The notes under the pieces were generated by a model. That model did no database searches, had not been told where the DNA came from, and was given only the letters and a program-made list of their open reading frames with translations. Both the position numbers and the translations under genes were made by a program. Shown one piece after another: positions 10,793 to 32,224 of a stretch of 32,296 nt of DNA (positions are counted from its first letter, which is position 1; each line of letters starts with the position of its first letter). The DNA is from Patescibacteria group bacterium (GTDB lineage Bacteria; Patescibacteriota; Minisyncoccia; Minisyncoccales; PWPS01), in NCBI GenBank assembly GCA_051745165.1, contig JBNJDU010000005.1:1-32296 (forward strand). Reading direction: 5' to 3'.

Positions 10793-10878
10793 GCCTGGAT
10801 GCTGGAATTAGGTAGACAGGGCGGATTCAAAATCCGCTGTCCGTTAAGGACGTGTGGGTTCGATTCCCACTCCAGGCA
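10793..10878 (+). tRNA. tRNA-Leu(CAA), CCA not encoded
   Basis: Acceptor GCCTGGA/TCCAGGC, anticodon arm GCGGA-TTCAAAA-TCCGC, long variable arm GTCC-GTTAA-GGAC, T-arm GTGGG-TTCGATT-CCCAC. Upstream TTTACA-17-TAAAAT promoter. Confidence 0.97.
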
Positions 10879-12508: not shown

Positions 12509-13763
12509 AAGGTAGTGGAAAATCTTCTGCTAGTTTTTTTATTTCTTTTCTCGCTTTTTTAGCTCTTTTTTCACTTTTTTCTGTTATTACTTCATCCATA
12601 ATTTTAGCGATTTCTATCATTTCCTTTTTCCCCATTCCTCGAGTAGTTATTGCCGGAGTTCCTAATCTTATTCCCGATGGATTAAATGGTTTAGCTGGAT
12701 CATTAGGAATGGCATTTTTATTTATTGTTATTCCTGCTTTTTCTAATAGACTTTCTGCCTTTTTGCCGCCAATATCTTTACTTCTAAGATCAATAAGACA
12801 AAGATGATTGTCTGTACCACCAGTAACTAACTCAAAATCTCTGTTTATTAATTCTTCAGCAAGTTTTTTATTATTATTCACCACTTTTTGCCCATAGGTT
12901 TTGAAATCATTTCCTAAAGCTTCTCTAAAGCAAACTGCCTTTGCTGCAATTTGATGCTCATGAGGTCCACCTTGAAGTCCGGGGAATACTGCCTTGTTTA
13001 TCTTTTGATCTAGCTCAGAATCTTTTTTCAATCCCTTTTCAGTTACCATCACCATTCCTCCCCTTGGCCCACGTAGAGTTTTGTGAGTTGTAGTCGTTAT
13101 TATATCTACATGCTCAGCTGGGCTAGAATGAACTCCAGCAACAATTAATCCGGCAATGTGAGCAATATCAGCAGCTAAATAAGCTCCAACTTCTTCAGCT
13201 ATTTTACTAAACCCTTTCCAATCAAAATCTCTAGGATAGGCAGAACCACCAACCCAAATAAGTTTTGGCTTCTCCTCTTTTGCAATCTTTCTTACTTCTT
13301 CTAAATTAATTCGTTGATCTTTTTCATTTACTCCATAAGAAGCAGATTCATAATAAGTACCCGAAAAACTAACTGGCCAACCGTGAGTTAGGTGACCCCC
13401 ATCTTTAAGATTCATTCCTAAAACTTTTTCTCCTGGCTCCATACAAGCAAAATAAACTGCCATATTAGCTGGAGATCCAGAGTAGGGTTGAACATTGGCA
13501 AACGGGACGTTAAACAGCTTCTTAGCTCTCTCCTTAGCCAAAACTTCTACCTCATCAATATACTCATTCCCTCCGTAATACCTCTTTCCGGGATATCCTT
13601 CTGCATACTTATCAGTTAAGATGGTGCTCATCGCTTCTAAAACCGCTGGTGAGGTGTGATTTTCAGAAGGTATCATCTCTAAGGTGTCTTTCCTTCTTTT
13701 TCTTTCCTTTTTTATTATTTTAAAAACCTCTTTATCTTCTTTTTTTAAGTTATTTCTCTTCAT
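12498..13763 (-). CDS. glyA: Serine hydroxymethyltransferase
   Basis: PSEN, KYAEGYPGKRYYGG, GGHLTHG, TTTTHKTLRGPRGG, SGIRLGTPA. Confidence 0.98.
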   Translation of the reverse strand: MKRNNLKKEDKEVFKIIKKERKRRKDTLEMIPSENHTSPAVLEAMSTILTDKYAEGYPGKRYYGGNEYIDEVEVLAKERAKKLFNVPFANVQPYSGSPANMAVYFACMEPGEKVLGMNLKDGGHLTHGWPVSFSGTYYESASYGVNEKDQRINLEEVRKIAKEEKPKLIWVGGSAYPRDFDWKGFSKIAEEVGAYLAADIAHIAGLIVAGVHSSPAEHVDIITTTTHKTLRGPRGGMVMVTEKGLKKDSELDQKINKAVFPGLQGGPHEHQIAAKAVCFREALGNDFKTYGQKVVNNNKKLAEELINRDFELVTGGTDNHLCLIDLRSKDIGGKKAESLLEKAGITINKNAIPNDPAKPFNPSGIRLGTPAITTRGMGKKEMIEIAKIMDEVITEKSEKRAKKARKEIKKLAEDFPLPYDL

Positions 13764-21224: not shown

Positions 21225-21329
21225 ATAGGTTCGACCTATCAGAAATAGTTAAAAATAGGTCGAACCTATTAGAAAAGTAAAAACCGCCTCTTTGGCGATT
21301 TTGTTGATTTAAAAATAGGTCAAACCTAT
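21225..21329. repeat. Three ATAGGT-N3-ACCTAT palindromes
   Basis: Copies at 21225-21239, 21255-21269 and 21315-21329. A fourth lies at 25411-25425. Confidence 0.85.
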
Positions 21330-21358
21330 CCGAATCAGCACGGTCTTCATAATCCAAA

Positions 21359-21503
21359 GCGAAGATACTCTCTTTGAAGAAGTTCTCGGAGAGGATTTTG
21401 CATGGTCTTTTCGTTAGAAAAGAAAATCCTCGAGAGCACAGAGCCCGAATTCCCGCTGGGAATTCTTGAGGCTCGGTTCTTACAAAGGGGGTATCGAGCG
21501 CAC
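21359..21503 (+). repeat. Structured dispersed element, copy A
   Basis: Multi-stem fold that aligns with 25642-25784 and 30764-30900 with compensatory changes. Confidence 0.85.
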
Positions 21504-23897
21504 TTATGTGACAAAATTCACAAGCTTATCTTCAACAAAAATTTCTTTTTTAATCTCAGCATTTTCAATCCATTTCTTGACTTTTTCTCTTTCTTTTGCC
21601 AATTTTAAAGCTTCTTCCTTGGTAATTCCTTTCTTAACTTCCATTTTATCTCTTAATTTTCCGTTCACTTGAACAATTAAAGTAATCTGTTTCTTTTCTG
21701 CAACTTTCGGATCAAATTCAGGCCAGTCAGATTCCAAAATAGACTCTTCATTGTATTTTTGCCACAATTCTTCACTAAAGTGAGGAGCAAAAGGAGCCAA
21801 GAGTTGTAAAAATTTAGTAAATATATCAACAGAAACAGCTTTCTTATCTTTCATTTTATTACTAATTATCATTAAGCTACTTATTGCTGTATTGAACTTA
21901 AAACTTTCAATATCATCAGTTACCTTCTTAATAGTTCTGTGTAGTAAGCTTTGCAACTTTTCATCTGGTTCTTTTTCCTTTACTTTCTCTACTAAACCAT
22001 TAACTTTTTCTAAAAATCTTCTCATCCCAACTACGCCTTCTTCATCCCAAGGAACCTCATCTTCAAATCCACCAACAAACATTTCATAAAGTCTAAGCAC
22101 ATCTGCTCCATACTCATCGACAATATCGTCCGGGGAAACTACATTTCCTTTTGACTTAGACATCTTAGTCCCGTCATCAGCCATAATAAGACCTTGATTT
22201 TTTAGCTTTTTAAATGGTTCTTTAGTTGACACCACATCCAAGTCATATAAGAACTTGTGCCAAAATCGAGCATATAAGAGATGGAGTACGGCGTGTTCTG
22301 CACCACCAACATACAAATCAACAGGCATAAAGTAGTCTTCTTTTTTCGGATCAATAAGCTCTTCACTATTTTCAGGGTCAATATATCTAAGATAATACCA
22401 ACAGGATCCAGCCCATTGCGGCATAGTGTTTGTTTCTCTTTTCGCCTTACCACCACATTCAGGACAAGTCGTGTTTACCCATTCATCAATTGCTGCTAAT
22501 GGCGAGTGTCCAGTTCCGGTTGGTTCATATTTTTCTACCTCCGGCAAAGTAACAGGGAGCTTCTCTTCAGGAACAGGAACTGTTCCACACTCTTCACAAT
22601 GAATAATAGGGATTGGCTCTCCCCAATAACGTTGCCTAGAGAAGACCCAATCTCTTAATTTATAATTAACCGCTCTTTCTCCCTTGTCTTTCTCTTCTAG
22701 TTTTTGAACTATCTTTTCTTTCATCATCTTAGTAGATAGTCCATTAAATTCTCCAGAATTAATCACCTTGCCGGTCCCAGCAAAGGGTAGCTCTTCAGCT
22801 TCCACTACTGGTCTTATCTCCAAATCGTATTTTTCAGCCATTTCAAAATCTCTTTCGTCATGAGCAGGAACAGACATTATTGCTCCGTATCCATAAGAAC
22901 CGAGTACATAATCAGCAACCCAAACAGGAATTTCTTCCCCACTTACTGGATTTATTGCCGTTAATCCTTTTACTTCCACTCCTGTCTTCTCTTTATTTAA
23001 TTCAGTCCTTTCTAAATCGGATTTTTTTCTTGCTTCTTCTACATATTTTTCAACCTCTTGTTTGTTTTCAATTTCTATATCTCCAGAAAGTACTCTTTTA
23101 GTAAGATCATGTTCAGGCGCTAAAACCATAAAGGTGGCACCGAAAACGGTGTCCGGTCTAGTAGTAAAAACTTCTAACTCATCCTTGCTTTCCTTTACTT
23201 CAAAGCTTATCCTTGCTCCTTCCGAGCGACCAATCCAGTTTCTTTGCATTTCTTTAATTGATTCAGGCCAATCTAAATCTTCTAAATCCTCTAGCAATCT
23301 ATCAGCATAATCAGTAATTTTTAAAACCCATTGCCTAATATCTTTTTTTTCTACTTGCGTGTCGCAACGCTCACATTCTCCATCTATAACCTCTTCATTA
23401 GCTAAACCAGTTTTACAAGAAGGACACCAATTAATAGGTAGCTCATCTTCATAAGCAAGACCTTTTTTAAACATTTGAACGAATATCCATTGTGTCCACT
23501 TAAAATAATCCGGATCAGTAGTATTAACCTCTCTATCCCAGTCAAAACCTAGTCCAATTGATTCTAATTGTTCTTTGAAATGCTTAATATTTTTAGTAAC
23601 TGATTCACGAGGATGAGTTCCTGTTTTTATCGCATAATTTTCTGCCGGGAGTCCAAAAGCATCCCACCCCATTGGATGTAAAACATTAAAACCATTCATT
23701 CTCTTAAAATTAGAAAAGACATCAGTAGCAACATATCCTCTCGGATGACCTACGTGAAGTCCTTTTCCTGAAGGGTAAGGAAACATATCAAGACAATAGA
23801 ATTTTTCCTTTTTAGAGTCATCATCAGCCTTAAATACTTCTTTATTTTTCCAAAATTCTCGCCATTTTTCTTCTTGTTTTTTATGATCGTATTTCAT
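21504..23897 (-). CDS. leuS: Leucyl-tRNA synthetase
   Basis: MFPYPSGKGLHVGH, GWDAFGLPAEN, FTTRPDT, VPAHDERD, SRQRYWGEP, KMSKS, VQVNGK. Confidence 0.98.
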   Translation of the reverse strand: MKYDHKKQEEKWREFWKNKEVFKADDDSKKEKFYCLDMFPYPSGKGLHVGHPRGYVATDVFSNFKRMNGFNVLHPMGWDAFGLPAENYAIKTGTHPRESVTKNIKHFKEQLESIGLGFDWDREVNTTDPDYFKWTQWIFVQMFKKGLAYEDELPINWCPSCKTGLANEEVIDGECERCDTQVEKKDIRQWVLKITDYADRLLEDLEDLDWPESIKEMQRNWIGRSEGARISFEVKESKDELEVFTTRPDTVFGATFMVLAPEHDLTKRVLSGDIEIENKQEVEKYVEEARKKSDLERTELNKEKTGVEVKGLTAINPVSGEEIPVWVADYVLGSYGYGAIMSVPAHDERDFEMAEKYDLEIRPVVEAEELPFAGTGKVINSGEFNGLSTKMMKEKIVQKLEEKDKGERAVNYKLRDWVFSRQRYWGEPIPIIHCEECGTVPVPEEKLPVTLPEVEKYEPTGTGHSPLAAIDEWVNTTCPECGGKAKRETNTMPQWAGSCWYYLRYIDPENSEELIDPKKEDYFMPVDLYVGGAEHAVLHLLYARFWHKFLYDLDVVSTKEPFKKLKNQGLIMADDGTKMSKSKGNVVSPDDIVDEYGADVLRLYEMFVGGFEDEVPWDEEGVVGMRRFLEKVNGLVEKVKEKEPDEKLQSLLHRTIKKVTDDIESFKFNTAISSLMIISNKMKDKKAVSVDIFTKFLQLLAPFAPHFSEELWQKYNEESILESDWPEFDPKVAEKKQITLIVQVNGKLRDKMEVKKGITKEEALKLAKEREKVKKWIENAEIKKEIFVEDKLVNFVT

Positions 23898-24003
23898 ATG
23901 CTTTTTTGTTTATTTACTAACTCATTTTACCGAAAATATAACCGTTTGTCTAATTAAAAATATTATTATAAAATAAAGTTAACCCCTTGAAAGGAGGGAT
24001 AAA

Positions 24004-24540
24004 ATGAGATCTCAGCAATGTGAAAAAGATCACGGGTTGTTGGAAAAAATGATTGAACTGGATAGAAAAGATTTAGACAAACACTTAAAAGAATGTTCTG
24101 TTTGTGCTAGCTCATTAAAAAAGGCTTACCGTCTTTATAAGGATAAAAAGAAAGAGCCTATTCTTAATAGTTTCCCTCCATATGACTCAACTAGAACTTT
24201 GACTGAGTTTTTAGACGCTTGGGTTATTTCTTTAGTTTCTAAAAGAGATAGATTACATCACTACGCCACAGAAATAAATGCTAAAATGGCTAATGAAAAT
24301 GTAAGAACATTAACAATTGGCTTAATTCAAGAATTAATAAAGTCATTGAAAGCTAAAACCAAGCAGGAAAGATTAGACAGGTATAAATCTTTATCTGAAA
24401 TAATAGAAATACTTGATGGCGAGTTTTTTCAAGAAGAATTTAAGCTTTTCCTTGGACATTCAAAGGAAGAGCTAATAGAAATAATAGAAGATCATTTATT
24501 GATTGAGGAGGATAAAGACAAATTATTACCCCGGAAGTAA
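24004..24540 (+). CDS. Hypothetical protein with N-terminal zf-HC2/ZAS-like HxxxCxxC motif
   Basis: SD AAGGAGG, HLKECSVC near the N-terminus, downstream hairpin CCCGG/CCGGG plus T run. Confidence 0.65.
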   Translation: MRSQQCEKDHGLLEKMIELDRKDLDKHLKECSVCASSLKKAYRLYKDKKKEPILNSFPPYDSTRTLTEFLDAWVISLVSKRDRLHHYATEINAKMANENVRTLTIGLIQELIKSLKAKTKQERLDRYKSLSEIIEILDGEFFQEEFKLFLGHSKEELIEIIEDHLLIEEDKDKLLPRK

Positions 24541-24551
24541 CCGGGGCTTTT

Positions 24552-25283
24552 TTATATATTAAATAGCTTTTTGACGTTTTTATCAGTGAGTTTTTCTAAT
24601 TTTTTAAAATCAATTTCTTTAACTTTAGCCACTCTTTCAGCAACAGAAATTACTCCCAGTGGATTATTTTTACCTTTCCACTTTGGAGGAGCTAGATAAG
24701 GGCAGTCAGTTTCCAGAAATATTCTATCCGTTGGAGTTCGTTCAATTTGCTTATCTAAACTTAATTTGAAAATAATCCCATTAAATCCAATATAAAATCC
24801 TAGTTCTAAATATTTTTTTAGACTAGTCATATTTCCAGTAAAGCAATGAACTACTCCCTTTACTGAAAAGTCTTCTAAAATATTTAAAACCTCTTTATGT
24901 GCTTTTCGAGAATGGATTACTACTGGTAAGTTGAGCTCCTCAGCTATCTTTAATTGTGCTTTAAAATCTTTTTTTTGTTGACTAAAAGTTTCTTTCTTTT
25001 TCTTATCTAAACCAATCTCTCCGATAGCTATTACTTTTTTATTATCCTTAGCAAGCTTTCTAACCTCTTCTACTTCTTCCTCATCAGCATGTAAGGGATG
25101 AACACCAACCACAGCGTAAACACTTTCTTTATATTCGTCTGCAATATTTACTGCCCTTTTACTAGTTTTAACATTAGAACCAACATTTATTACTTTGATA
25201 TTCCTGTCAAAACAATCTCTAATTATTTCTCTATAATTATCTTCAAAATCATCAAAATTTAAATGCGCATGACTATCAAACAT
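24552..25283 (-). CDS. tatD: TatD family hydrolase
   Basis: DSHAHL, GVHP, IGEIGLD, VIHSR, VHCFTG, LETDCPYL. Confidence 0.95.
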   Translation of the reverse strand: MFDSHAHLNFDDFEDNYREIIRDCFDRNIKVINVGSNVKTSKRAVNIADEYKESVYAVVGVHPLHADEEEVEEVRKLAKDNKKVIAIGEIGLDKKKKETFSQQKKDFKAQLKIAEELNLPVVIHSRKAHKEVLNILEDFSVKGVVHCFTGNMTSLKKYLELGFYIGFNGIIFKLSLDKQIERTPTDRIFLETDCPYLAPPKWKGKNNPLGVISVAERVAKVKEIDFKKLEKLTDKNVKKLFNI

Positions 25284-25410
25284 ATAGCAATAATTTATAA
25301 ATTTTTAATTTTAATTTATGAATTATTATAACATAAATCATCATAATTTTGAGAAAGTAAATCTAAGTCCCTAAATTATGTAATAGGTTGCAAGGGTGGT
25401 TAAGTTAAAA

Positions 25411-25425
25411 ATAGGTTGAACCTAT
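25411..25425. repeat. ATAGGT-N3-ACCTAT palindrome, fourth copy
   Basis: TTAAAAATAGGTTGAACCTATC, with the same left flank as the copies at 21255 and 21315. Confidence 0.8.
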
Positions 25426-25433
25426 CACAGCTC

Positions 25434-25508
25434 ACGATGACCATGACGATGACATTACTATGACAATGACTAAATTGCTCTAATTGCACTAATTAACTTA
25501 ATTGCTCT
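25434..25508. repeat. Degenerate short tandem repeats (6-mer ACnATG, then 9-mer AATTGCTCT x4)
   Basis: ACGATG ACCATG ACGATG ACATT ACTATG ACAATG, followed by AATTGCTCT AATTGCACT AATTAACTT AATTGCTCT. Confidence 0.75.
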
Positions 25509-25545
25509 AAAAATTACTAAATCTCAATTGAAAATTATTATAAAG

Positions 25546-25573
25546 GGATTCTTCACCTACGGCTCAGAATGAC
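25546..25573. repeat. REP-like unit GATTCTTC...CTCAGAATGAC
   Basis: Same unit as at 30628-30662 and 30716-30747. Confidence 0.8.
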
Positions 25574-25641
25574 GGATTAATCTGAAGCGAAGATACTCTA
25601 TTTGAAGAACTCCGCGTAACCGATTCAGTAACTAACCTGAA

Positions 25642-25784
25642 GTGAGGGATTGGGGTTGAAAGAAGTTCGCGGAGGCAATTTGGCACGGCCTCGGCTTCGC
25701 CGAGCAAATTGTCGAGCGCACAACCCCCGAATCGCCGCCGGCGATTCTTGAGGGGTGGTTCTTTCAACCCCAACCCGAGCGCAC
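25642..25784 (+). repeat. Structured dispersed element, copy B (preceded by a 5' fragment at ~25578-25618)
   Basis: GGATTGGGGTTGAAAGAA/TTCTTTCAACCCCAACCC closing stem with the same internal arms as copies A and C. Confidence 0.85.
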
Positions 25785-25807
25785 TAAAAAAAGAGCCCAC
25801 CCTGTTT

Positions 25808-26500
25808 CTAGGTGAGCTTTATTTTTGATGTATCTTTCAAACTCTTAATTTTTCTTAAATCATTTTGAGCTTGTCGTAAACTAGTTCTTTTTCTAGGGTA
25901 AGCATCGTTTGCCTCTTTTAACCATTCAATCAATTGATTCCGTGCTTTTTTACCTGTTGGTGGATTTCCCCAAGGTAATCTAATTCTGTCTTCTTCAAAG
26001 AAAAAATAAAACATTTTCCTTTTAACTTCTCCAACAGTCTTACCGTTGAGATTGTTAAAAATATCGTTCATTTTCTTAACTTCTTCCTCAGTCGTTTTTT
26101 CACAATCCAAAAGACCTTGCTTAATTCCTTGCATGCGAAGTAAAAATCTTTCATTTTCAGCCGATTTAAAGAAATCTTCAGGTCTAGGGAAGTGCAATGA
26201 ACTGAAATGAGGCAGTTGAAATTTTGCATAACTAGTTAGTATATGCTTAAGACCTTGAATGGTCCAATCACTCCCTGCTCTAACTAAAAATGGATTGTTT
26301 TTAGCTTCGTCAGGTGCTATCTTAACTAGCTTGTGTGCAGTATAAGAAAAATTATTTCTTTTTCTTCCATTAAAAATTACTATTCTGTGTTTGTCTATTT
26401 TTCCACTGCATTTAATGTCTCTAAACCCCATCTCTTCTAATGCTTGTCTAATCTCTTCTAGAACTATAGTCTCTTCTTTTATAAAGAACGAAAGATACAT
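25808..26500 (-). CDS. Hypothetical protein (orphan)
   Basis: Long ORF. ATG 26500 (MYLSFF) follows SD AAGGAGG, so it is preferred over GTG 26518. No recognisable motif. Confidence 0.65.
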   Translation of the reverse strand: MYLSFFIKEETIVLEEIRQALEEMGFRDIKCSGKIDKHRIVIFNGRKRNNFSYTAHKLVKIAPDEAKNNPFLVRAGSDWTIQGLKHILTSYAKFQLPHFSSLHFPRPEDFFKSAENERFLLRMQGIKQGLLDCEKTTEEEVKKMNDIFNNLNGKTVGEVKRKMFYFFFEEDRIRLPWGNPPTGKKARNQLIEWLKEANDAYPRKRTSLRQAQNDLRKIKSLKDTSKIKLT

Positions 26501-26580
26501 ACTAGCACCCTCCTTCACTTATTTTTTGATCCGCTTAAAGACCAATCAAAACTCATTAGCTTTAAACGAGCTTTAAGCCC

Positions 26581-26785
26581 AAAAAAAGTCCTCCCGTTTT
26601 CTTAGGAGGGTAACTTCCGAGAATCTTAACTTTTTTACCGGCTTACTTAGCGATCTCGAAAATTACCTTCTCCAATCCAAAGATACATCTCTGGTCTGGA
26701 GACGGTAAATTTGCAAATCGCTTTTTGATCTATTTGTTTTTCCATAAGCCACTTAAAGTGTATTATAAATTAAAATAATTGTCAA
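26581..26785 (-). promoter_or_regulatory. Putative leader-peptide transcription attenuator (uORF 26647-26745)
   Basis: TTGACA-17-TACACT promoter, 32-codon uORF, mutually exclusive 1:2, 2:3 and 3:4 helices, U7 tail. Confidence 0.65.
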
Positions 26786-26871
26786 AAATTTACACAAGCT
26801 ATACTTTCTGGTATTATATTCTTAGCTAAGCGGAATCCCCGCTTGGTATTTTAATTAACTTATCTTAAATT

Positions 26872-28272
26872 ATGAAAAGAACAAAAATAATCACGACTAT
26901 TGGACCCGCTTCTCAAGATGATGAAACTTTGTCCAAATTGATAGATGCTGGAGCTAATGTGTTTCGTTTTAATATGAAGCACGGCGAAACTAGTTGGCAT
27001 AGTAAAATAATAGAAAAAGCACAAAAAATAGCTGATGAAAAAAATATTCCGTTAGGAATGATGATTGATCTTCAAGGTCCGGAAGTGAGAATTAACACTA
27101 AAAATGACTTTATAAAGGTTGAAAGAGGAGAAGAGATTTACTTCAAAACTAGTTTTGACTCAGAAAAAAAGACTATTAAGGTTCCGGATAAAGATCTTCT
27201 TAATTTGCTAAAAGAAGGGAGTAAGCTTTTAATTGATGATGGCTTTTACGAGTTTGAGGTTGTAGAAAATAATAATGGAGAAGTATTAGCAAAATCCCTC
27301 CGCAGCGGAAGAATTGGAGATAGAAAAGGAATGAATATCCCTGCTCATAAATTAAACTTACCATCTTTGATTAAAGATGATTTAAAAAAACTTGACTTAG
27401 CTGCAAAGAGAGAAATTGACTACGTCGCCCTTTCTTTTACCAGAACCAAAGAGGACGTTAAAAGGTTAAGAAAAGAAATGAAAAAGAGAGGTATTGACGC
27501 TCATATAGTCGCAAAAATTGAAAACAAGTCTGCTCTTGAAAATTTAGAAAAAATTATTAAGGAGGCAGACGGAGTTATGGTTGCCAGAGGAGATTTAGGA
27601 ATAGAAACTCCTTTAGAAGAAATTGCTTACTGGCAAAAAAAGATTATTACTAAGTGTAGGGAAATGAAAACTCCGGTAATAGTTGCTACTCAGATGCTTC
27701 AGTCAATGACTGACAACCCTATTCCTACAAGGGCTGAAGTTACTGATGTTGCAAATGCGATATTTAATGGAACAGATGCCGTAATGCTCTCTAATGAAAC
27801 TGCTATGGGTAAATATCCTATAGAATCAGTTAAAGCAATGAAAAAAATAATTGCTTATAATGAAAAAGGAACTACATTTGAACCAATAAGCTCTGAACCG
27901 GAAACTTCTTCAGATCTAATAATGAGATCAGCTGTAGAGATGTTAGAAAAATCCGGCAAAGTTAATTTTGAAGCGGTTTTAGTCTTTACTAAAGACGGAG
28001 AAACAGCAAAGCAAGTTTCTTCATTAAGACCAAAATTACCTATATTTGCAATTACTAACAAAAAAGAGGTTATTGAAAAATTAAATATTTGTTACGGTAT
28101 TGAAAATAGGTATACCGTCTTTAATGAGGAGTTGTTAAAAAATCCGAACAAAATAATTGAACAATTACGAAAAGAGGGACTGCTCAAAAAAGGAAAAAAA
28201 GTATTAATGGTTCAAGCTCAGCACTGGGACTTACCCGAACTATCAAAAGCACTAACCATTGTTAATGTATAA
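26872..28272 (+). CDS. pyk: Pyruvate kinase
   Basis: RTKIITTIGPAS, DLQGPEVR, AKIEN, MVARGDLG, ATQMLQSM, PTRAEVTDVANA, DAVMLSNETA.GKYP. Confidence 0.97.
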   Translation: MKRTKIITTIGPASQDDETLSKLIDAGANVFRFNMKHGETSWHSKIIEKAQKIADEKNIPLGMMIDLQGPEVRINTKNDFIKVERGEEIYFKTSFDSEKKTIKVPDKDLLNLLKEGSKLLIDDGFYEFEVVENNNGEVLAKSLRSGRIGDRKGMNIPAHKLNLPSLIKDDLKKLDLAAKREIDYVALSFTRTKEDVKRLRKEMKKRGIDAHIVAKIENKSALENLEKIIKEADGVMVARGDLGIETPLEEIAYWQKKIITKCREMKTPVIVATQMLQSMTDNPIPTRAEVTDVANAIFNGTDAVMLSNETAMGKYPIESVKAMKKIIAYNEKGTTFEPISSEPETSSDLIMRSAVEMLEKSGKVNFEAVLVFTKDGETAKQVSSLRPKLPIFAITNKKEVIEKLNICYGIENRYTVFNEELLKNPNKIIEQLRKEGLLKKGKKVLMVQAQHWDLPELSKALTIVNV

Positions 28273-28298
28273 AATTAAAACCTCCTTTTAGGTCGGTT

Positions 28299-29363
28299 TT
28301 AACTTATATCTTTAACAAATTCTTTTAATACTTGATAGTACCTTTCTAAGTCTTCTTTGCTTATCCATTCATTTGGCCCATGATGGCCACCACCCTTGGG
28401 TTTAACGACTAAAGTTGGAATCTTTTTCGAAGCAAAGAATCGCGCATCAGAAGAACCGTGAGAAAAAGCGGTTCTTCTTTTTCTTCCATACCTATCTTTA
28501 GCAATTTGAAAAAACTTTTTAAAATATTTATTGTTTACATTCCACTTAAAGCTAGGGCCTGTGACTACTTTTTCTAGTTCAATGTAATCTTTTTTAATCG
28601 AATCAATATTTTTCATCACTTCTTCTACATTTGTTTCTGGAACAAATCTAATATCAACAAGAGCTTCGGCAAATTCGGGCACTTGATTTCCCGCTTTCCC
28701 GCTATGTATTTTAGTAAGTGTAGCTGTAGTTCTATAATTCTCATCAGTATCAGGATATAACTCTTTAAGATCATTAATAAATAAAAGCAATCTTTCGGCT
28801 GCATTTTTGCCTTGCCATGGCCTACTAGCATGAGCCGCCTTGCCTTGAGCTTTTAGTTTTAAGTGAATAACTCCTTTTGCACCTTCTTCTAATTCCCAAT
28901 TTGTTCTTCCGTCAGGTAAAAAACAAAAATCCCCGATATATCCTTTTTCTACTAAACTTCCAACTCCATTAAAACCACCCAGCTCTTCATCGCTAGTAAT
29001 CATTACTCCTAAATCAAGATTTGATAATTCATCTTTTAATTCTTTTAGAAGTTTTATATAGCAAGCAATAGCAAATTTCATGTCGTAAACTCCGCGCCCA
29101 ATATATTTTCCTTCTTTTTCTTTTAAGCTAAATAAATCTTCCGAGCCTGGCACCACATCAATATGCGCTTGCAAAAAAACTTTGGGTTTTTTGGTTTTTT
29201 TAGTCGTTAAAATTAAAGAAGAGAAATCTTCACTCTTTTCCCATTTTTTATATAACTGCAAATCAGAAAGTTCTTCTTCTACATATTCTAAAGCTTTCTT
29301 ATTCTCCTTTTTATCCTTAGAAACCGTTTTAAAGCCTATTAATTTTTCTAATATTTTTTTCAT
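28299..29363 (-). CDS. M20 family metallopeptidase/deacylase (ArgE/DapE-like)
   Basis: AHIDVVP, GRGVYDMK, DEELGG, GKAAHASRPWQGKNA, SSDARFF, HHGPNEW. Confidence 0.92.
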   Translation of the reverse strand: MKKILEKLIGFKTVSKDKKENKKALEYVEEELSDLQLYKKWEKSEDFSSLILTTKKTKKPKVFLQAHIDVVPGSEDLFSLKEKEGKYIGRGVYDMKFAIACYIKLLKELKDELSNLDLGVMITSDEELGGFNGVGSLVEKGYIGDFCFLPDGRTNWELEEGAKGVIHLKLKAQGKAAHASRPWQGKNAAERLLLFINDLKELYPDTDENYRTTATLTKIHSGKAGNQVPEFAEALVDIRFVPETNVEEVMKNIDSIKKDYIELEKVVTGPSFKWNVNNKYFKKFFQIAKDRYGRKRRTAFSHGSSDARFFASKKIPTLVVKPKGGGHHGPNEWISKEDLERYYQVLKEFVKDIS

Positions 29364-29391
29364 AATTACTTTTATTTTAATAAGTTTAAAG

Positions 29392-29421
29392 AAAAAAGAA
29401 AAGGGCCAATTTTTGGCCCTT
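29392..29421 (-). terminator. Intrinsic terminator after the ATP-grasp gene
   Basis: AAGGGCCAA/TTGGCCCTT stem followed on the minus strand by TTCTTTTTT. Confidence 0.7.
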
Positions 29422-29425
29422 ATTT

Positions 29426-30538
29426 TTATCCTTGTTCCATTATAGTTCCGGCAAAACCAGCTCCCTGACTAACATTTATCATTCCACGCTGCCAATAACT
29501 TTCATACTTTTCTACTCTGGCAATTGTATACAAATACTCTATATTACCATCTTCCACCCAAAAAGATGGATTTAAATCAAAACTATAAAATTCATCATTT
29601 ATCTTAATTTTGGGTAGCCATTTTGCCTTGCAAAGTCCGTAACTTCCTTGTTGAACCTTTTCTTTTAATACCTCTTCCCATTGTTTGTTACTAACTTTGC
29701 GGCCGAAAACAATCTCCTTTCCTCCGTGTCCACGCAGAGGTTTTAAAACATAATTATCTTTATTTAGTCCCTTAACTTTTGCTAAATCATCAACTGATTC
29801 CAAAATAAAATCATCCGCTGCTGGGTTTAAAACAAACCTTTTATTTCCAACATCTTCTTTAGACTCTCCAGGAATAGTATTAAAAACTAAAACTGAGTCA
29901 TTTTGTGCCTCTAAAAGCCACTTTTGAAAACGTTGAGGAAATTCACTAAACTTACCAAATCGAACATCACCCCAGCGATATAAAGGCGAGGGCCGATTAC
30001 GGACAATCTCATCTTTATCCATTGGAGTAACATTTAAAACCTGATTCATGTCTTCAAGATAGTCTGCGCCCCACTCTTCTTTTACCTTGCCCGAACCCCA
30101 AGCAAGATAAATTTTTTCAGTAGAAAAAGAATTCTTTATTCTTTTTGCTAATCTCTGTGTGGCTGAAGGTTGCATTTCACTTAGTTTAGGGAAGGCTTTG
30201 TGCTGAGCAGAAACTGCTGGAGCACATTCAGGAGTATGGACATTAGCTTCATAAACTCCACGAATAGAAAGCGACCCTAGATCATATTCATTTCCATTTG
30301 ATTGAGCAACCTCCCTGGTTAATCCAGGAATTAAATCAAAGCGAATATGACCAACAAAATGATCAGTCCGCACTTGATTCCAAATTCTATTCCAGGTTTG
30401 AGTGGCAAAATCAATTATTCTGTCTTTTTCTCGCTTAGAAATAGTAAAACTACCGTTTAGGACTCTAACCCTTTCACCTGCTAGAGAAAAATCATCATTT
30501 TCAGCAAAAACATTTTTACTTAAAAGAACAAGTTTCAT
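29426..30538 (-). CDS. Circularly permuted ATP-grasp amide ligase (glutathionylspermidine synthase-like / CP-ATPgrasp), paralog 1
   Basis: N-terminal RFD and YEAN..TPE, then GNK, VLKPLRGHGGKEIVFG, DLNPSF, ARV, INVSQGAG. Motif order matches circularly permuted ATP-grasps. Confidence 0.75.
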   Translation of the reverse strand: MKLVLLSKNVFAENDDFSLAGERVRVLNGSFTISKREKDRIIDFATQTWNRIWNQVRTDHFVGHIRFDLIPGLTREVAQSNGNEYDLGSLSIRGVYEANVHTPECAPAVSAQHKAFPKLSEMQPSATQRLAKRIKNSFSTEKIYLAWGSGKVKEEWGADYLEDMNQVLNVTPMDKDEIVRNRPSPLYRWGDVRFGKFSEFPQRFQKWLLEAQNDSVLVFNTIPGESKEDVGNKRFVLNPAADDFILESVDDLAKVKGLNKDNYVLKPLRGHGGKEIVFGRKVSNKQWEEVLKEKVQQGSYGLCKAKWLPKIKINDEFYSFDLNPSFWVEDGNIEYLYTIARVEKYESYWQRGMINVSQGAGFAGTIMEQG

Positions 30539-30610
30539 AATATCCCTCCTTTTTTATTTAGGGTTTTATCCCTATTTCTCTCTTCAAATAATTTAAAAAG
30601 AGAAATAGAA
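30520..30610. repeat. 91-bp direct repeat covering leader, SD and first 6 codons, copy 1
   Basis: Matches 32206-32296 with one mismatch. Confidence 0.95.
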
Positions 30611-30627
30611 ATAAAATTTATTGTAAA

Positions 30628-30747
30628 GGATTCTTCGGTCGTTTCACTTCCTCAGAATGACATACTTTTGTCATCCTGAGCGAAGCGAAGGATCTCATCT
30701 ATAACACTTTTCGAAGAGATTCTTCGGCCTACGGCCTCAGAATGACA
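30628..30747. repeat. Cluster of three alternating REP-like units (GATTCTTC...CTCAGAATGACA / TGTCATCCTGAG...GAAGGATC)
   Basis: Units at 30628-30662, 30669-30696 (inverted) and 30716-30747. Confidence 0.85.
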
Positions 30748-30763
30748 AGTAGAGCAACCTTTC

Positions 30764-30900
30764 GCGAGGGTTGTGGTGGGAAGAAGTCCGCGGAGGCGGT
30801 TTGGCATGTTCTTGATTTATCAAGAAAACCGCCGAGCGAACAAGACCCGAATCGTCGCTAGCGATTCTTGAGGTCTGGTTTTTCCCATCCACATCCGAGC
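30764..30900 (+). repeat. Structured dispersed element, copy C
   Basis: Same architecture as copies A and B with different stem sequences. Confidence 0.85.
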
Positions 30901-30932
30901 AAAAAGAAAACCTCCCGATCTCTCGGGAGGTT
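30901..30932 (-). terminator. Terminator (3:4 helix) of the Leu/Ile leader
   Basis: AACCTCCCGA-GAGA-TCGGGAGGTT followed by TTCTTTTT. Confidence 0.85.
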
Positions 30933-30954
30933 CCAAATTCTTTTTTATTTTAAA

Positions 30955-31111: not shown

Positions 31112-32224
31112 TTAGCTCTCTTTAACTTCTTTTAACGTTCCTCCGTAGCCTCCTCCTTGAGCTACATTAATAGTTTTTCGAGAAAAGTAACTTTCCCAAG
31201 GTTCGACTCTGACTAGGCTATATAAATATGTCAGATCTTTTCCATTTGCAAAAAATGAAGGCAATAAGTCCATAGTAATAGACAAGTTGTTAACTTCTAT
31301 TTTAGGAAGTAATATTTTCTCAAAAATTCCATAATCTCCCTTTTTAGTTGCTTTTCTTAAAATTATTCTCCACTTATCTTTACTTACATCTTCTCCAAAT
31401 AAAATCCCCTTTCCGGAAGCTCCTCTCAACGGTTTTAAGACATAATTGTCCTTGTCAACGAGCATTGCTTTTTCCAACTTGTGATTGCTATTTAAGACAA
31501 TATCTTCCTCAGAAGCTAAAAGTTTTTTGTTGGCTATATCGGCATTTCTACTTTCTGGAATTGTATTTATCACTCTTGAATAATTATTTTGTGCCTTGTA
31601 GAGCCACTTCTGAAAATCATCACTATACTCATTAAATTCTCCTTTAAAATCAACATCTCCCCACCGCCACAAAGTAGAAGGGGGATTTTTTTGAGCATCT
31701 GCCCATTTATTTACTGATACATTCAAGCCATTAGCAGACAGTTCATCAAGAAAGGCACTGGCCCAACTGCTCTTAGCTAAATTAGAACCTCTAACCATCG
31801 TTAATTTGCTGTCATAAGTCTCTAATAGCTTTTTAGCTAGCTGTTTACCAGCAGAAGGAGTATAGCTACTAATTTCAGGAAACTTCCGTCTATAAAGCGC
31901 ATCACAAGCTACTCCCTCTGGGCTATGTGTGTTTACTTCGTAAATTCCTTTAATAGATATTTCTCCCAGTCTTATTTCTGATCCCTTTCGTCTCGCTTTA
32001 CCTTTGAACTTTGGAATAAAATCAAAGCGAACGTGCCCTTCAAAATAATCCATACCTGATTTCTCAAAAATATTTTTCCAAATATCTTCTGCCTTTTTTA
32101 TGACTTTCTTCTTTTCTTTCTTTGTTATTTCTAAATATCCTTGAAGAGCATTAATTTTTTGATCACCAACAGAAAAACCTTCTCTTTTCTCGAAAAGCTT
32201 ATCTTTTAAAAGAACAAGTTTCAT
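31112..32224 (-). CDS. Circularly permuted ATP-grasp amide ligase, paralog 2
   Basis: RFD, YEVNTHSPEG, ANK, VLKPLRGASGKGILFG, DLLPSF, VRV, INVAQGGG. Same length as, and colinear with, 29426-30538. Confidence 0.75.
   Translation of the reverse strand: MKLVLLKDKLFEKREGFSVGDQKINALQGYLEITKKEKKKVIKKAEDIWKNIFEKSGMDYFEGHVRFDFIPKFKGKARRKGSEIRLGEISIKGIYEVNTHSPEGVACDALYRRKFPEISSYTPSAGKQLAKKLLETYDSKLTMVRGSNLAKSSWASAFLDELSANGLNVSVNKWADAQKNPPSTLWRWGDVDFKGEFNEYSDDFQKWLYKAQNNYSRVINTIPESRNADIANKKLLASEEDIVLNSNHKLEKAMLVDKDNYVLKPLRGASGKGILFGEDVSKDKWRIILRKATKKGDYGIFEKILLPKIEVNNLSITMDLLPSFFANGKDLTYLYSLVRVEPWESYFSRKTINVAQGGGYGGTLKEVKES

Follow-up and report, generated by a model that had tools for sequence, protein, structure and literature searches.

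The locus

The window examined here, 32,296 nt of contig JBNJDU010000005.1 (GCA_051745165.1; its genome is referred to as G000), carries three copies of a structured, repeated element of about 145 nt that may well represent a new family of non-autonomous mobile repeats. The three copies can be aligned end to end with a mean column identity of 77%. A covariance model built from them (R1) returned for copies 1 and 2 the coordinates of an initial annotation made from the sequence, 21359-21503 and 25642-25784; for copy 3 it returned the same start but a different end, as the match, 30764-30904, extends this copy 4 nt beyond the position first given (30900). That annotation had counted three copies and had overlooked a 42-nt 5' fragment of another, at 25587-25628, directly upstream of copy 2. 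The cores, the fragments and leaders before them, and the neighbouring features are as follows.

21359..21503, + strand: copy 1, three-way-junction core of about 145 nt (R1 E 8.4e-35; fold -65.1 kcal/mol, z -6.6)
25642..25784, + strand: copy 2, core (R1 E 1.9e-37; fold -74.3 kcal/mol, z -5.4)
30764..30904, + strand: copy 3, core (R1 E 5.0e-34; fold -59.7 kcal/mol, z -4.4)
21336..21358, + strand: putative arm 1 remnant of an older copy (..CAGCACGGTCTT) and, after it, the leader CATAATCCAAA, judged by comparison with the leaders of 75 copies
25587..25628, + strand: 5' fragment of a further copy, 42 nt, from the P1 5' strand to the arm 1 5' strand (blastn interval 25587-25784)
25629..25641, + strand: leader TAACTAACCTGAA ahead of copy 2
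21504..23897, - strand: leuS, leucyl-tRNA synthetase, 797 aa, with an intact C-terminus (Pfam; orthologues share the end codon with or without the element)
25794..25818, - strand: terminator-like hairpin between copy 2 and the 236-aa gene at 25808-26518, whose 3' end it overlaps
30907..30934, - strand: terminator-like hairpin separating copy 3 from the 370-aa gene at 31112-32224, downstream of which it lies
21249..21330: two copies of a different small hairpin repeat (AAAAATAGGTCRAACCTAT), separate from the 145-nt element and resembling the hairpins that flank the IS200-like Y1 gene of G000

The 3' end of copy 1 lies one base before the leuS stop codon (TAA), and the leader type CATAATCCAAA found ahead of it is the one that stands before the core in the window's genus. 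Copy 2 belongs to a subfamily with the P1 sequence GGGATTGGGGTTGA, whose nearest relatives, in the genomes G005 and G003, have at most 86% identity to it, and the tail of copy 3 runs into the A-tract of the terminator that follows. It was claimed at the outset that each copy adjoins the 3' end of a minus-strand unit, and this is what we find, copy 1 lying at the leuS stop and copies 2 and 3 being followed by minus-strand terminator hairpins. The description of two of these neighbours has to be amended. The one at copy 2, called the terminator of an orphan, belongs to a 236-aa open reading frame (ORF) without a Pfam family, and the "leader" named beside copy 3 goes back only to a Phe_leader match of 33 bits, below the gathering score of 55. 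Two ORFs of exactly 370 aa (29426-30538 and 31112-32224, both on the - strand), again without a Pfam family, flank copy 3. A near-identical terminator and flank recur near a contig end, at G000:C3:73656, so that the region of copy 3 may be duplicated.

Conserved fold and folded strand

RNAalifold gave the three window copies a three-way junction with 52 pairs, of which 22 are changed on both sides; it reproduces the P1 helix, the capped arm 1 and the arm 2 that had been proposed from the sequence. Against shuffled sequences the + strand fold of each copy is far more stable (z values in the list above). Since the - strand scores well too (z = -5.1 to -5.9), the folded strand is undecidable from the three copies alone.

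A set of 76 copies from related genomes was also considered; their alignment was fitted to the model, so that its pair counts are tilted in favour of the structure, and the controls, in which the pairing partners were slid by 1-3 columns, were taken from the same alignment. Standard pairs fill 95.2% of the 3882 cells, and this falls to 38-49% in the slid controls; 50 of the 52 pairs are changed on both sides, and the observed values are reached by 0 of 500 shuffles. Together with 40 matches from other lineages, described below, these counts bear out the early suggestion that the structure is under selection. G-U and U-G cells outnumber A-C and C-A cells by 152 to 58, with an excess in every helix, and the + strand is the more stable one in 70/76 copies, by 6.25 kcal/mol on average. 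Replication-linked strand skews are well known in bacteria, and with the orientation seen in the closed genome G056 (see below) the expected mutation bias would, if anything, oppose the G-U excess. From the G-U excess, the lower energy and this direction of the mutation bias we take the + strand to be the folded one, as had first been argued from G-U wobbles, and the + strand is likewise more stable in 34/34 distinct sequences from Aminicenantes and Eubacteriales.

The fold consists of a long closing helix, P1, an arm 1 with a conserved GCAYGGU bulge and an arm 2 capped by a CGCUGG loop. Some unpaired bases are invariant or nearly so: arm 1 has CG-AG and GAG at its base and GCAYGGU in its bulge, arm 2 has CGCUGG in its loop, and the junction has an A and, on its 3' side, GNU. 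P1 and arm 1 each have at their base, in the consensus, the same 3x2 internal loop, C-GNA-G / C-GA-G, which may form tandem G-A pairs.

Protein coding on the minus strand, where ORFs such as 25564-25800 run over copies, was considered and rejected: the frame is not kept between copies, and the covariation of the pairs explains the conservation. In the two copies compared, the frame that opens with the gene-sense GTG ends 7 codons later in copy 1 and stays open in a copy of G004. The element thus produces spurious ORFs, of which 25564-25800 is an example.

Copy number and distribution

In the 623-kb genome G000, which is in 29 contigs, R1 found 17 full-length matches and one fragment, so that the element is repeated as first noted but with far more members than the three seen in the window. 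[quoted passage not shown] Short fragments added by blastn bring the element DNA to 3226 nt in total, or about 0.5% of the genome. The genomes of the Candidate Phyla Radiation rank with the smallest and most compact that are known, yet this one holds 17 copies of a 145-nt element and fragments besides. Several of the G000 copies lie at contig ends, and the contigs of three congeners stop at the 3' end of leuS; the element breaks assemblies at gene ends.

Within the order, matches were found in 19/61 genomes. The other genomes of the window's genus all carry the element (8/8, with 1-15 matches each), and only 3/14 genomes of the sister genus do. R2, a second model built from the 76 copies, matched 10/151 genomes in a sample of the phylum, 7 of them outside the order. 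The family is worth entering in catalogues of RNAs and of repeats.

Homologues in other phyla

A pattern of the conserved core was scanned over one genome per species; the matches are mostly chance ones in G+C-rich genomes and the resulting list of taxa is no census, and among the matches listed, repeated ones occur in Aminicenantes and in "uncultured Eubacteriales". R2 was run on 100 of the pattern loci (21 viral loci and 79 of the 80 listed genome loci), and 19 were confirmed among the matches listed. The full-length R2 matches comprise at least 11 loci in Aminicenantes, at least 6 in Eubacteriales, at least one in Saccharibacteria and at least one in Wildermuthbacteria. Copies reach 17 in a 3.2-Mb Eubacteriales genome, 3-4 in each of two Aminicenantes chromosomes and 6 in a Saccharibacteria genome. 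When the structure of the window's lineage was applied to 40 Aminicenantes and Eubacteriales matches (34 distinct), it paired at 78.2%, against 37-45% in slid controls, with compensatory changes in 29/52 pairs. The same folded core is thus kept in at least three phyla.

Some of these homologues look like MITEs. In the Eubacteriales genome G211 the core lies between inverted repeats of about 20 nt, G(T/G)AAGCATCC..CCGTGA and its complement, and the terminal inverted repeats of Eubacteriales and Aminicenantes take the form G(T/G)AAGCAT..CCGTGA, the repeat also being written GTAAGCAT..CCGTGA. Direct duplications of 8-9 bp were found in 6/13 G211 loci inspected (ATACTGCAA, GGATCAGC, ATTCTTCC and three imperfect ones), the other loci being nested beside further repeats. 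The inverted-repeat motif occurs 177 times in G211, against 9 for a control pattern, and is also found around shorter elements without the core. The ends of IS66 elements begin with GTAAGC, and their insertion duplicates 8 bp of target. The ends and the duplication length in G211 fit these features of IS66, and the IS66 transposase (PF03050) is absent from 5/5 genomes tested.

Insertion polymorphism within the genus

In 6 or 7 of the 8 congeners the intergenic site at which a copy follows the RNase J gene in G000 (C2:35269) is empty; with its 16-nt leader taken as belonging to the element, this copy has CTA on either side. In the opposite case, the site of a copy in G006 is empty in G000; the 3' end of this copy is the end of the model, and TTA stands on both sides of it and was already present at the empty site. 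Polymorphism of presence and absence at orthologous sites is thus seen at the RNase J, G006 and leuS sites. At the leuS and pgm sites the subfamily present in G000 differs from that in other species. Copies at different loci in G002, G003, G004, G005 and G007 share 94-97% identity, and their flanking genes about 72-81%.

The empty RNase J-flush site of G006 (C2, about 12720-12758, L117) reads TAA-GCTTCGC-TAA directly after the stop codon, and GCTTCGC is the complement of the first bases of the element; a copy since lost may have left this trace.

Ahead of many copies stand a 5' fragment of a further copy, which ends in arm 1, and then a short leader of the type TAAYCNNAA, and one copy is followed by a 3' fragment of another. 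At tRNA-Glu loci of three species there are arrays of copies spaced by a 21-nt piece of the tRNA 3' end. The tandem copies at the tRNA-Glu(CTC) loci L068, L063 and L088 (in G007, G005 and G008) are separated by the same 21-25-nt piece of the tRNA-Glu 3' end, TGACCCCGAGGGGAATTGAACGTCG, which differs from the intact neighbouring tRNA. In the sister genus, copies have hairpin-shaped inverted ends, TGTAAG..CTTACA, and a 5-7-bp duplication was found in G017.

Position at gene ends

In G000, 5/17 copies meet a converging ORF whose stop codon begins at the base after the element's 3' end (+1). In a set of 75 copies, a converging stop codon stands at exactly +1 in 15/75 and within -4 to +5 in 27/75, and there is no comparable peak on the 5' side. 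Under random intergenic placement 0.4% of copies would be flush and antisense, and the probability of five or more among 17 is 6e-9; intergenic DNA makes up 11.7% of G000. A similar position is taken at tRNA genes, since in 7/9 loci scanned a tRNA-Glu or tRNA-Trp on the opposite strand has its 3' end abutting the element or overlapping it by one base. The genes in flush position (leuS, argS, rpsG, the ATP synthase beta subunit, topA, RNase J, phosphoglucomutase and a ZIP transporter) are housekeeping genes unrelated to one another whose C-terminal domains are complete, and the leuS end codon is unchanged in a congener without the element at the site. The place of the element relative to the transcript end is not constant, as copy 1 precedes the gene's terminator and copies 2, 3 and others come after a terminator hairpin.

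One copy is flush with a ZIP-transporter gene (G000:C3:35291-36022, L004) for which blastn has no match in the 8 congeners, in which the gene on the other side of the copy does match; the transporter gene may be accessory and may have come in with the element.

In the closed genome G056, where GC skew and gene-strand bias put the origin near 290 kb, 4/4 copies have their folded strand on the leading-strand template, antisense to the co-directional genes. Outside the window's lineage there is no rule of position at gene ends: 45 metagenome loci with both neighbours called include 22 between divergent genes and 2 between convergent ones, and those in tandem regions are antisense in 13 cases and sense in 8.

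Mobilising partners, vehicles and known families

Rfam 15 gave nothing at gathering score for the three window copies, in agreement with the initial statement that no family could be assigned. At E <= 10 no match covers a copy, and the only touches, on the last 40 nt of copy 3, are at chance level. Rfam also gave nothing on 18 loci from other phyla and nothing relevant on a Eubacteriales copy at E <= 5; known RNA families are thus ruled out by these scans. Models of self-cleaving ribozymes (HDV-like, hatchet, twister-sister and hammerhead) matched neither strand. Literature searches, covering titles and abstract openings, brought up no description of an element of this kind from Patescibacteria, Saccharibacteria or Aminicenantes. 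A single Rfam match was obtained in the window, a tRNA with a long variable arm at 10793-10878 (53.6 bits).

Of the partners that had been suggested for the element, TnpB and reverse transcriptase were not found in G000 (no GIY-YIG search was made). A link to an HUH nuclease, also suggested, was not supported either, as the sole Y1 gene of G000 (C16:651-1352), IS200-like and of 233 aa, is flanked by a different, small hairpin repeat, with the hairpins GAGAGGTCGAACCTCTC on both sides. Y1 genes are present in 15/19 genomes of the order that bear the element and in 17/42 that do not, an association that is weak, and overstated because the compared genomes are related. The element also occurs without a Y1 gene in G008 (100% complete, 5 matches), G005, G009 and G022. 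A RAYT-like Y1 gene was on these grounds rejected as the partner.

Other small repeats

The small hairpin repeat of the window (AAAAATAGGTCGAACCTATCAGAAG; 21249-21275 and 21305-21330) occurs on several contigs, and hairpins similar to it are found in G000:C16 at 520-600 and 1350-1400 (L114), on both sides of the Y1 gene. A hairpin of the AAAAATAGGTCGAACCTATCAGAAG type replaces the 5' part of one element copy (C2:36565) and another sits inside arm 1 of a copy on C26. This repeat and the Y1 gene look like a REP-RAYT pair. A second hairpin repeat, GTCATYCTGAG-(GCGAAGC or GCCGTAGGC)-GAAGRATC, is present in the window at 30670-30696, 30716-30746 and 25550-25575; it lies in both orientations upstream of several element copies and shares their GA/GA internal loop motif. 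The palindrome CCTGCCTGCCGGCAGGCAGG is a third small repeat of an invasive kind, inserted in loops or fragments of element copies in several congeners (L090:345-511, L066, L074, L084). Small hairpin repeats and the CCTGCC..GGCAGG palindrome are inserted in the loops of some copies.

Interpretation

With somewhat better than even confidence we read the element as a new family of structured, non-autonomous mobile repeats, similar to miniature transposons, with a core of about 140 nt that forms a three-way junction on one strand. Mobility had been one of two alternatives offered in the initial annotation, and it is favoured over a single-copy RNA gene by the 17 copies, the polymorphic insertions, the near-identity of copies in different species and the inverted repeats and duplications that bound the homologues.

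The element would be moved in trans by a protein encoded elsewhere. Some phyla still have copies with 20-nt terminal inverted repeats and 8-9-bp target duplications, and in the window's genus these ends would have been lost or reduced to a 7-9-nt leader, with copies accumulating antisense to a gene, exactly at its stop codon or at a tRNA 3' end. The flush position might be produced by insertion at the TA(A/G) of a stop codon, which would re-create the stop and leave a 2-3-nt duplication, as two clean cases suggest, or by selection and the deletion of spacers, a very compact genome tolerating few other sites. Probably it arises in both ways; the tRNA-flush and terminator-flush copies and the topA site show that insertion at stop codons does not suffice. 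Being exactly flush and antisense, the element makes a clean example for the question of how harmless sites are reached by mobile DNA where a genome is very compact.

The core probably has a molecular job, because the relic of a DNA transposon is not expected to keep invariant unpaired bases and a fold on one strand. These same features suggest a core that works in the form of RNA or of a folded single strand, by binding a protein on which the spread of the element or its harmlessness would depend. A stronger proposal, which we think unlikely, is that the core is the working part of the element, either recruiting or guiding an unrecognised mobilising enzyme as RNA or folded strand, or cutting and joining itself. 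Were this true, it would be a new form of RNA-dependent DNA mobility, common to Patescibacteria, Aminicenantes and Clostridia, in which Saccharibacteria-like genomes are targeted at exact 3' gene boundaries.

Several observations weigh against a mobile repeat. No autonomous parent with the same ends was seen in G000, at 114 metagenome loci or in the inverted-repeat pairs of the Aminicenantes chromosome G210, the metagenome bins being often without insertion sequences. G000 is without TnpB (PF07282), reverse transcriptase (PF00078) and the IS110 and IS66 (PF03050) transposases, and has only one tyrosine recombinase. Among 744 ORFs around the 114 metagenome loci no protein cluster occurs in more than 3 loci, and 10 neighbours tested there were all metabolic enzymes. 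The pairs in G210, which are 1.9 kb apart, enclose ordinary genes and no transposase. Neither a phage nor a plasmid vehicle was found: 0/21 viral pattern contigs match R2, and blastn on plasmid and phage collections was empty. Copies in the window's genus have no constant ends or classical inverted repeats, only the variable P1 arms being inverted, and their target duplication is a 3-nt repeat with two clean cases (CTA and TTA), the tRNA-flush and terminator-flush copies showing none. The topA site is not a simple insertion either, as the ancestral spacer and terminator are gone in G000. Finally, a selected fold on one strand is unexpected for a plain double-stranded DNA transposon.

One rival account is that the copies are host genes for small RNAs, with + strand transcripts that run towards the neighbour's end and act as cis-antisense or protein-binding RNAs, the repeats being selected paralogues. 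The fold selected on the + strand would be that of the RNA, and RNAs that bind proteins typically have conserved unpaired bases and GNA/GA loops that recur, as it does. Behind several copies there are hairpin and T-run terminators that could be used on the + strand too, and the element is present in all eight of the genus's other genomes. Four metatranscriptome runs moreover contain short contigs (196-242 nt) that cover element copies, with a depth like that of neighbouring genes; these contigs give neither strand, ends nor level, are uninformative on parts without cover, and may reflect DNA carried over into the libraries. Promoter-like sites on the + strand, however, are no commoner than in shuffles and none lies close to a copy. 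Small-RNA genes would also have to be reconciled with a patchy spread (3/14 genomes in the sister genus, 10/151 in the phylum), with common truncated copies and nested insertions, with homologues that have inverted repeats and target duplications and with the mixed orientation in tandem regions outside the lineage, and we consider this account unlikely.

On another account an HUH Y1 enzyme of the IS200-like or RAYT-like kind would move the element as single-stranded DNA, with the fold as its recognition structure, much as in REP/REPIN or in derivatives of IS200/IS605. The selection of the fold on one strand, the single Y1 gene of G000, the more frequent Y1 genes in genomes with the element, the shared orientation of the four G056 copies relative to replication and the lack of clear duplications at most copies are consistent with it, but that Y1 gene has its own flanking repeat, kinship inflates the association and four genomes carry the element without the gene. 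The folded strand in G056 is on the leading-strand template, and IS608-type elements prefer the opposite one; the homologues with 8-9-bp duplications also argue otherwise, as single-strand transposition by HUH enzymes is not known to make such duplications. Movement by a Y1 enzyme thus appears very unlikely. Read in the sense of the upstream gene, the element could instead be a 3'-end element, such as a processing site, a ribozyme that cuts its own 5' end or a stabiliser. Its flush start, just behind stop codons and tRNA discriminator bases, would agree with this, as would copy 1, which has the leuS stop on one side and the next minus-strand terminator on the other; HDV-like ribozymes, moreover, are known directly downstream of phage tRNA genes. 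Such a role is highly improbable, as the gene-sense strand is the less stable one in 70/76 copies and has A-C over G-U cells by 152 to 58, copies 2 and 3 lie beyond the terminators of their genes, neither strand matches a known ribozyme family and the tie to gene ends is missing outside the lineage.

Comparison with known systems

Bacterial MITEs with folded transcripts include ERIC/IRU, Correia, RUP and bcr1. Such bacterial MITEs are the subject of reviews (PMC3184786, PMC2229807). Like ERIC- and Correia-type MITEs, the present element is short, non-coding, multi-copy and intergenic, varies in copy number between relatives and has subfamilies as well as nested and truncated copies, and its Eubacteriales and Aminicenantes homologues have terminal inverted repeats and 8-9-bp target duplications. 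Unlike them, its interior is a three-way junction with invariant unpaired bases, conserved in three phyla or more and under selection on one strand, and the copies of the window's genus are without classical inverted repeats, lie antisense and flush at gene ends, and have no parent insertion sequence that we could find.

With the REP/REPIN-RAYT system it shares palindromic repeats at gene 3' ends, a compact intergenic space, a single Y1 gene and single-strand folding. REPs, in contrast, are hairpins of 20-40 nt that flank the RAYT gene, a role taken here by the different small hairpin repeat, and the element is four times longer, branched and also present in four genomes without a Y1 gene. The attC sites of integrons resemble it in their conserved structure and variable sequence, in their length of about 60-140 nt and in lying directly after an ORF with the folded strand antisense to it. 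In chromosomal integrons this folded strand of attC is on the leading-strand template. Unlike attC, the element comes without an integron integrase (the single tyrosine recombinase is the only one in G000), has a branched junction with conserved internal loops, and neighbours dispersed housekeeping genes and tRNAs, not cassette arrays.

The omega RNAs of TnpB and IscB and the bridge RNA of IS110 are likewise structured RNAs of 100-200 nt that belong to mobile elements and have their 3' end at the flanking DNA, but G000 is without TnpB or IS110 and there is no Rfam match to the HEARO or IS605-orfB motifs. The homologues with inverted repeats and duplications are a further difference, as IS200/IS605 and IS110 elements are not known to have either, and from the non-coding RNA of retrons the element is set apart by the absence of a reverse transcriptase (PF00078) in G000. 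No one of these kinds, be it MITE, REP/RAYT, attC or transposon guide RNA, describes the element in full. The best account is that it is of the general kind of the bacterial MITEs, from which it is set apart by a fold on one strand with invariant loops that is shared across phyla.

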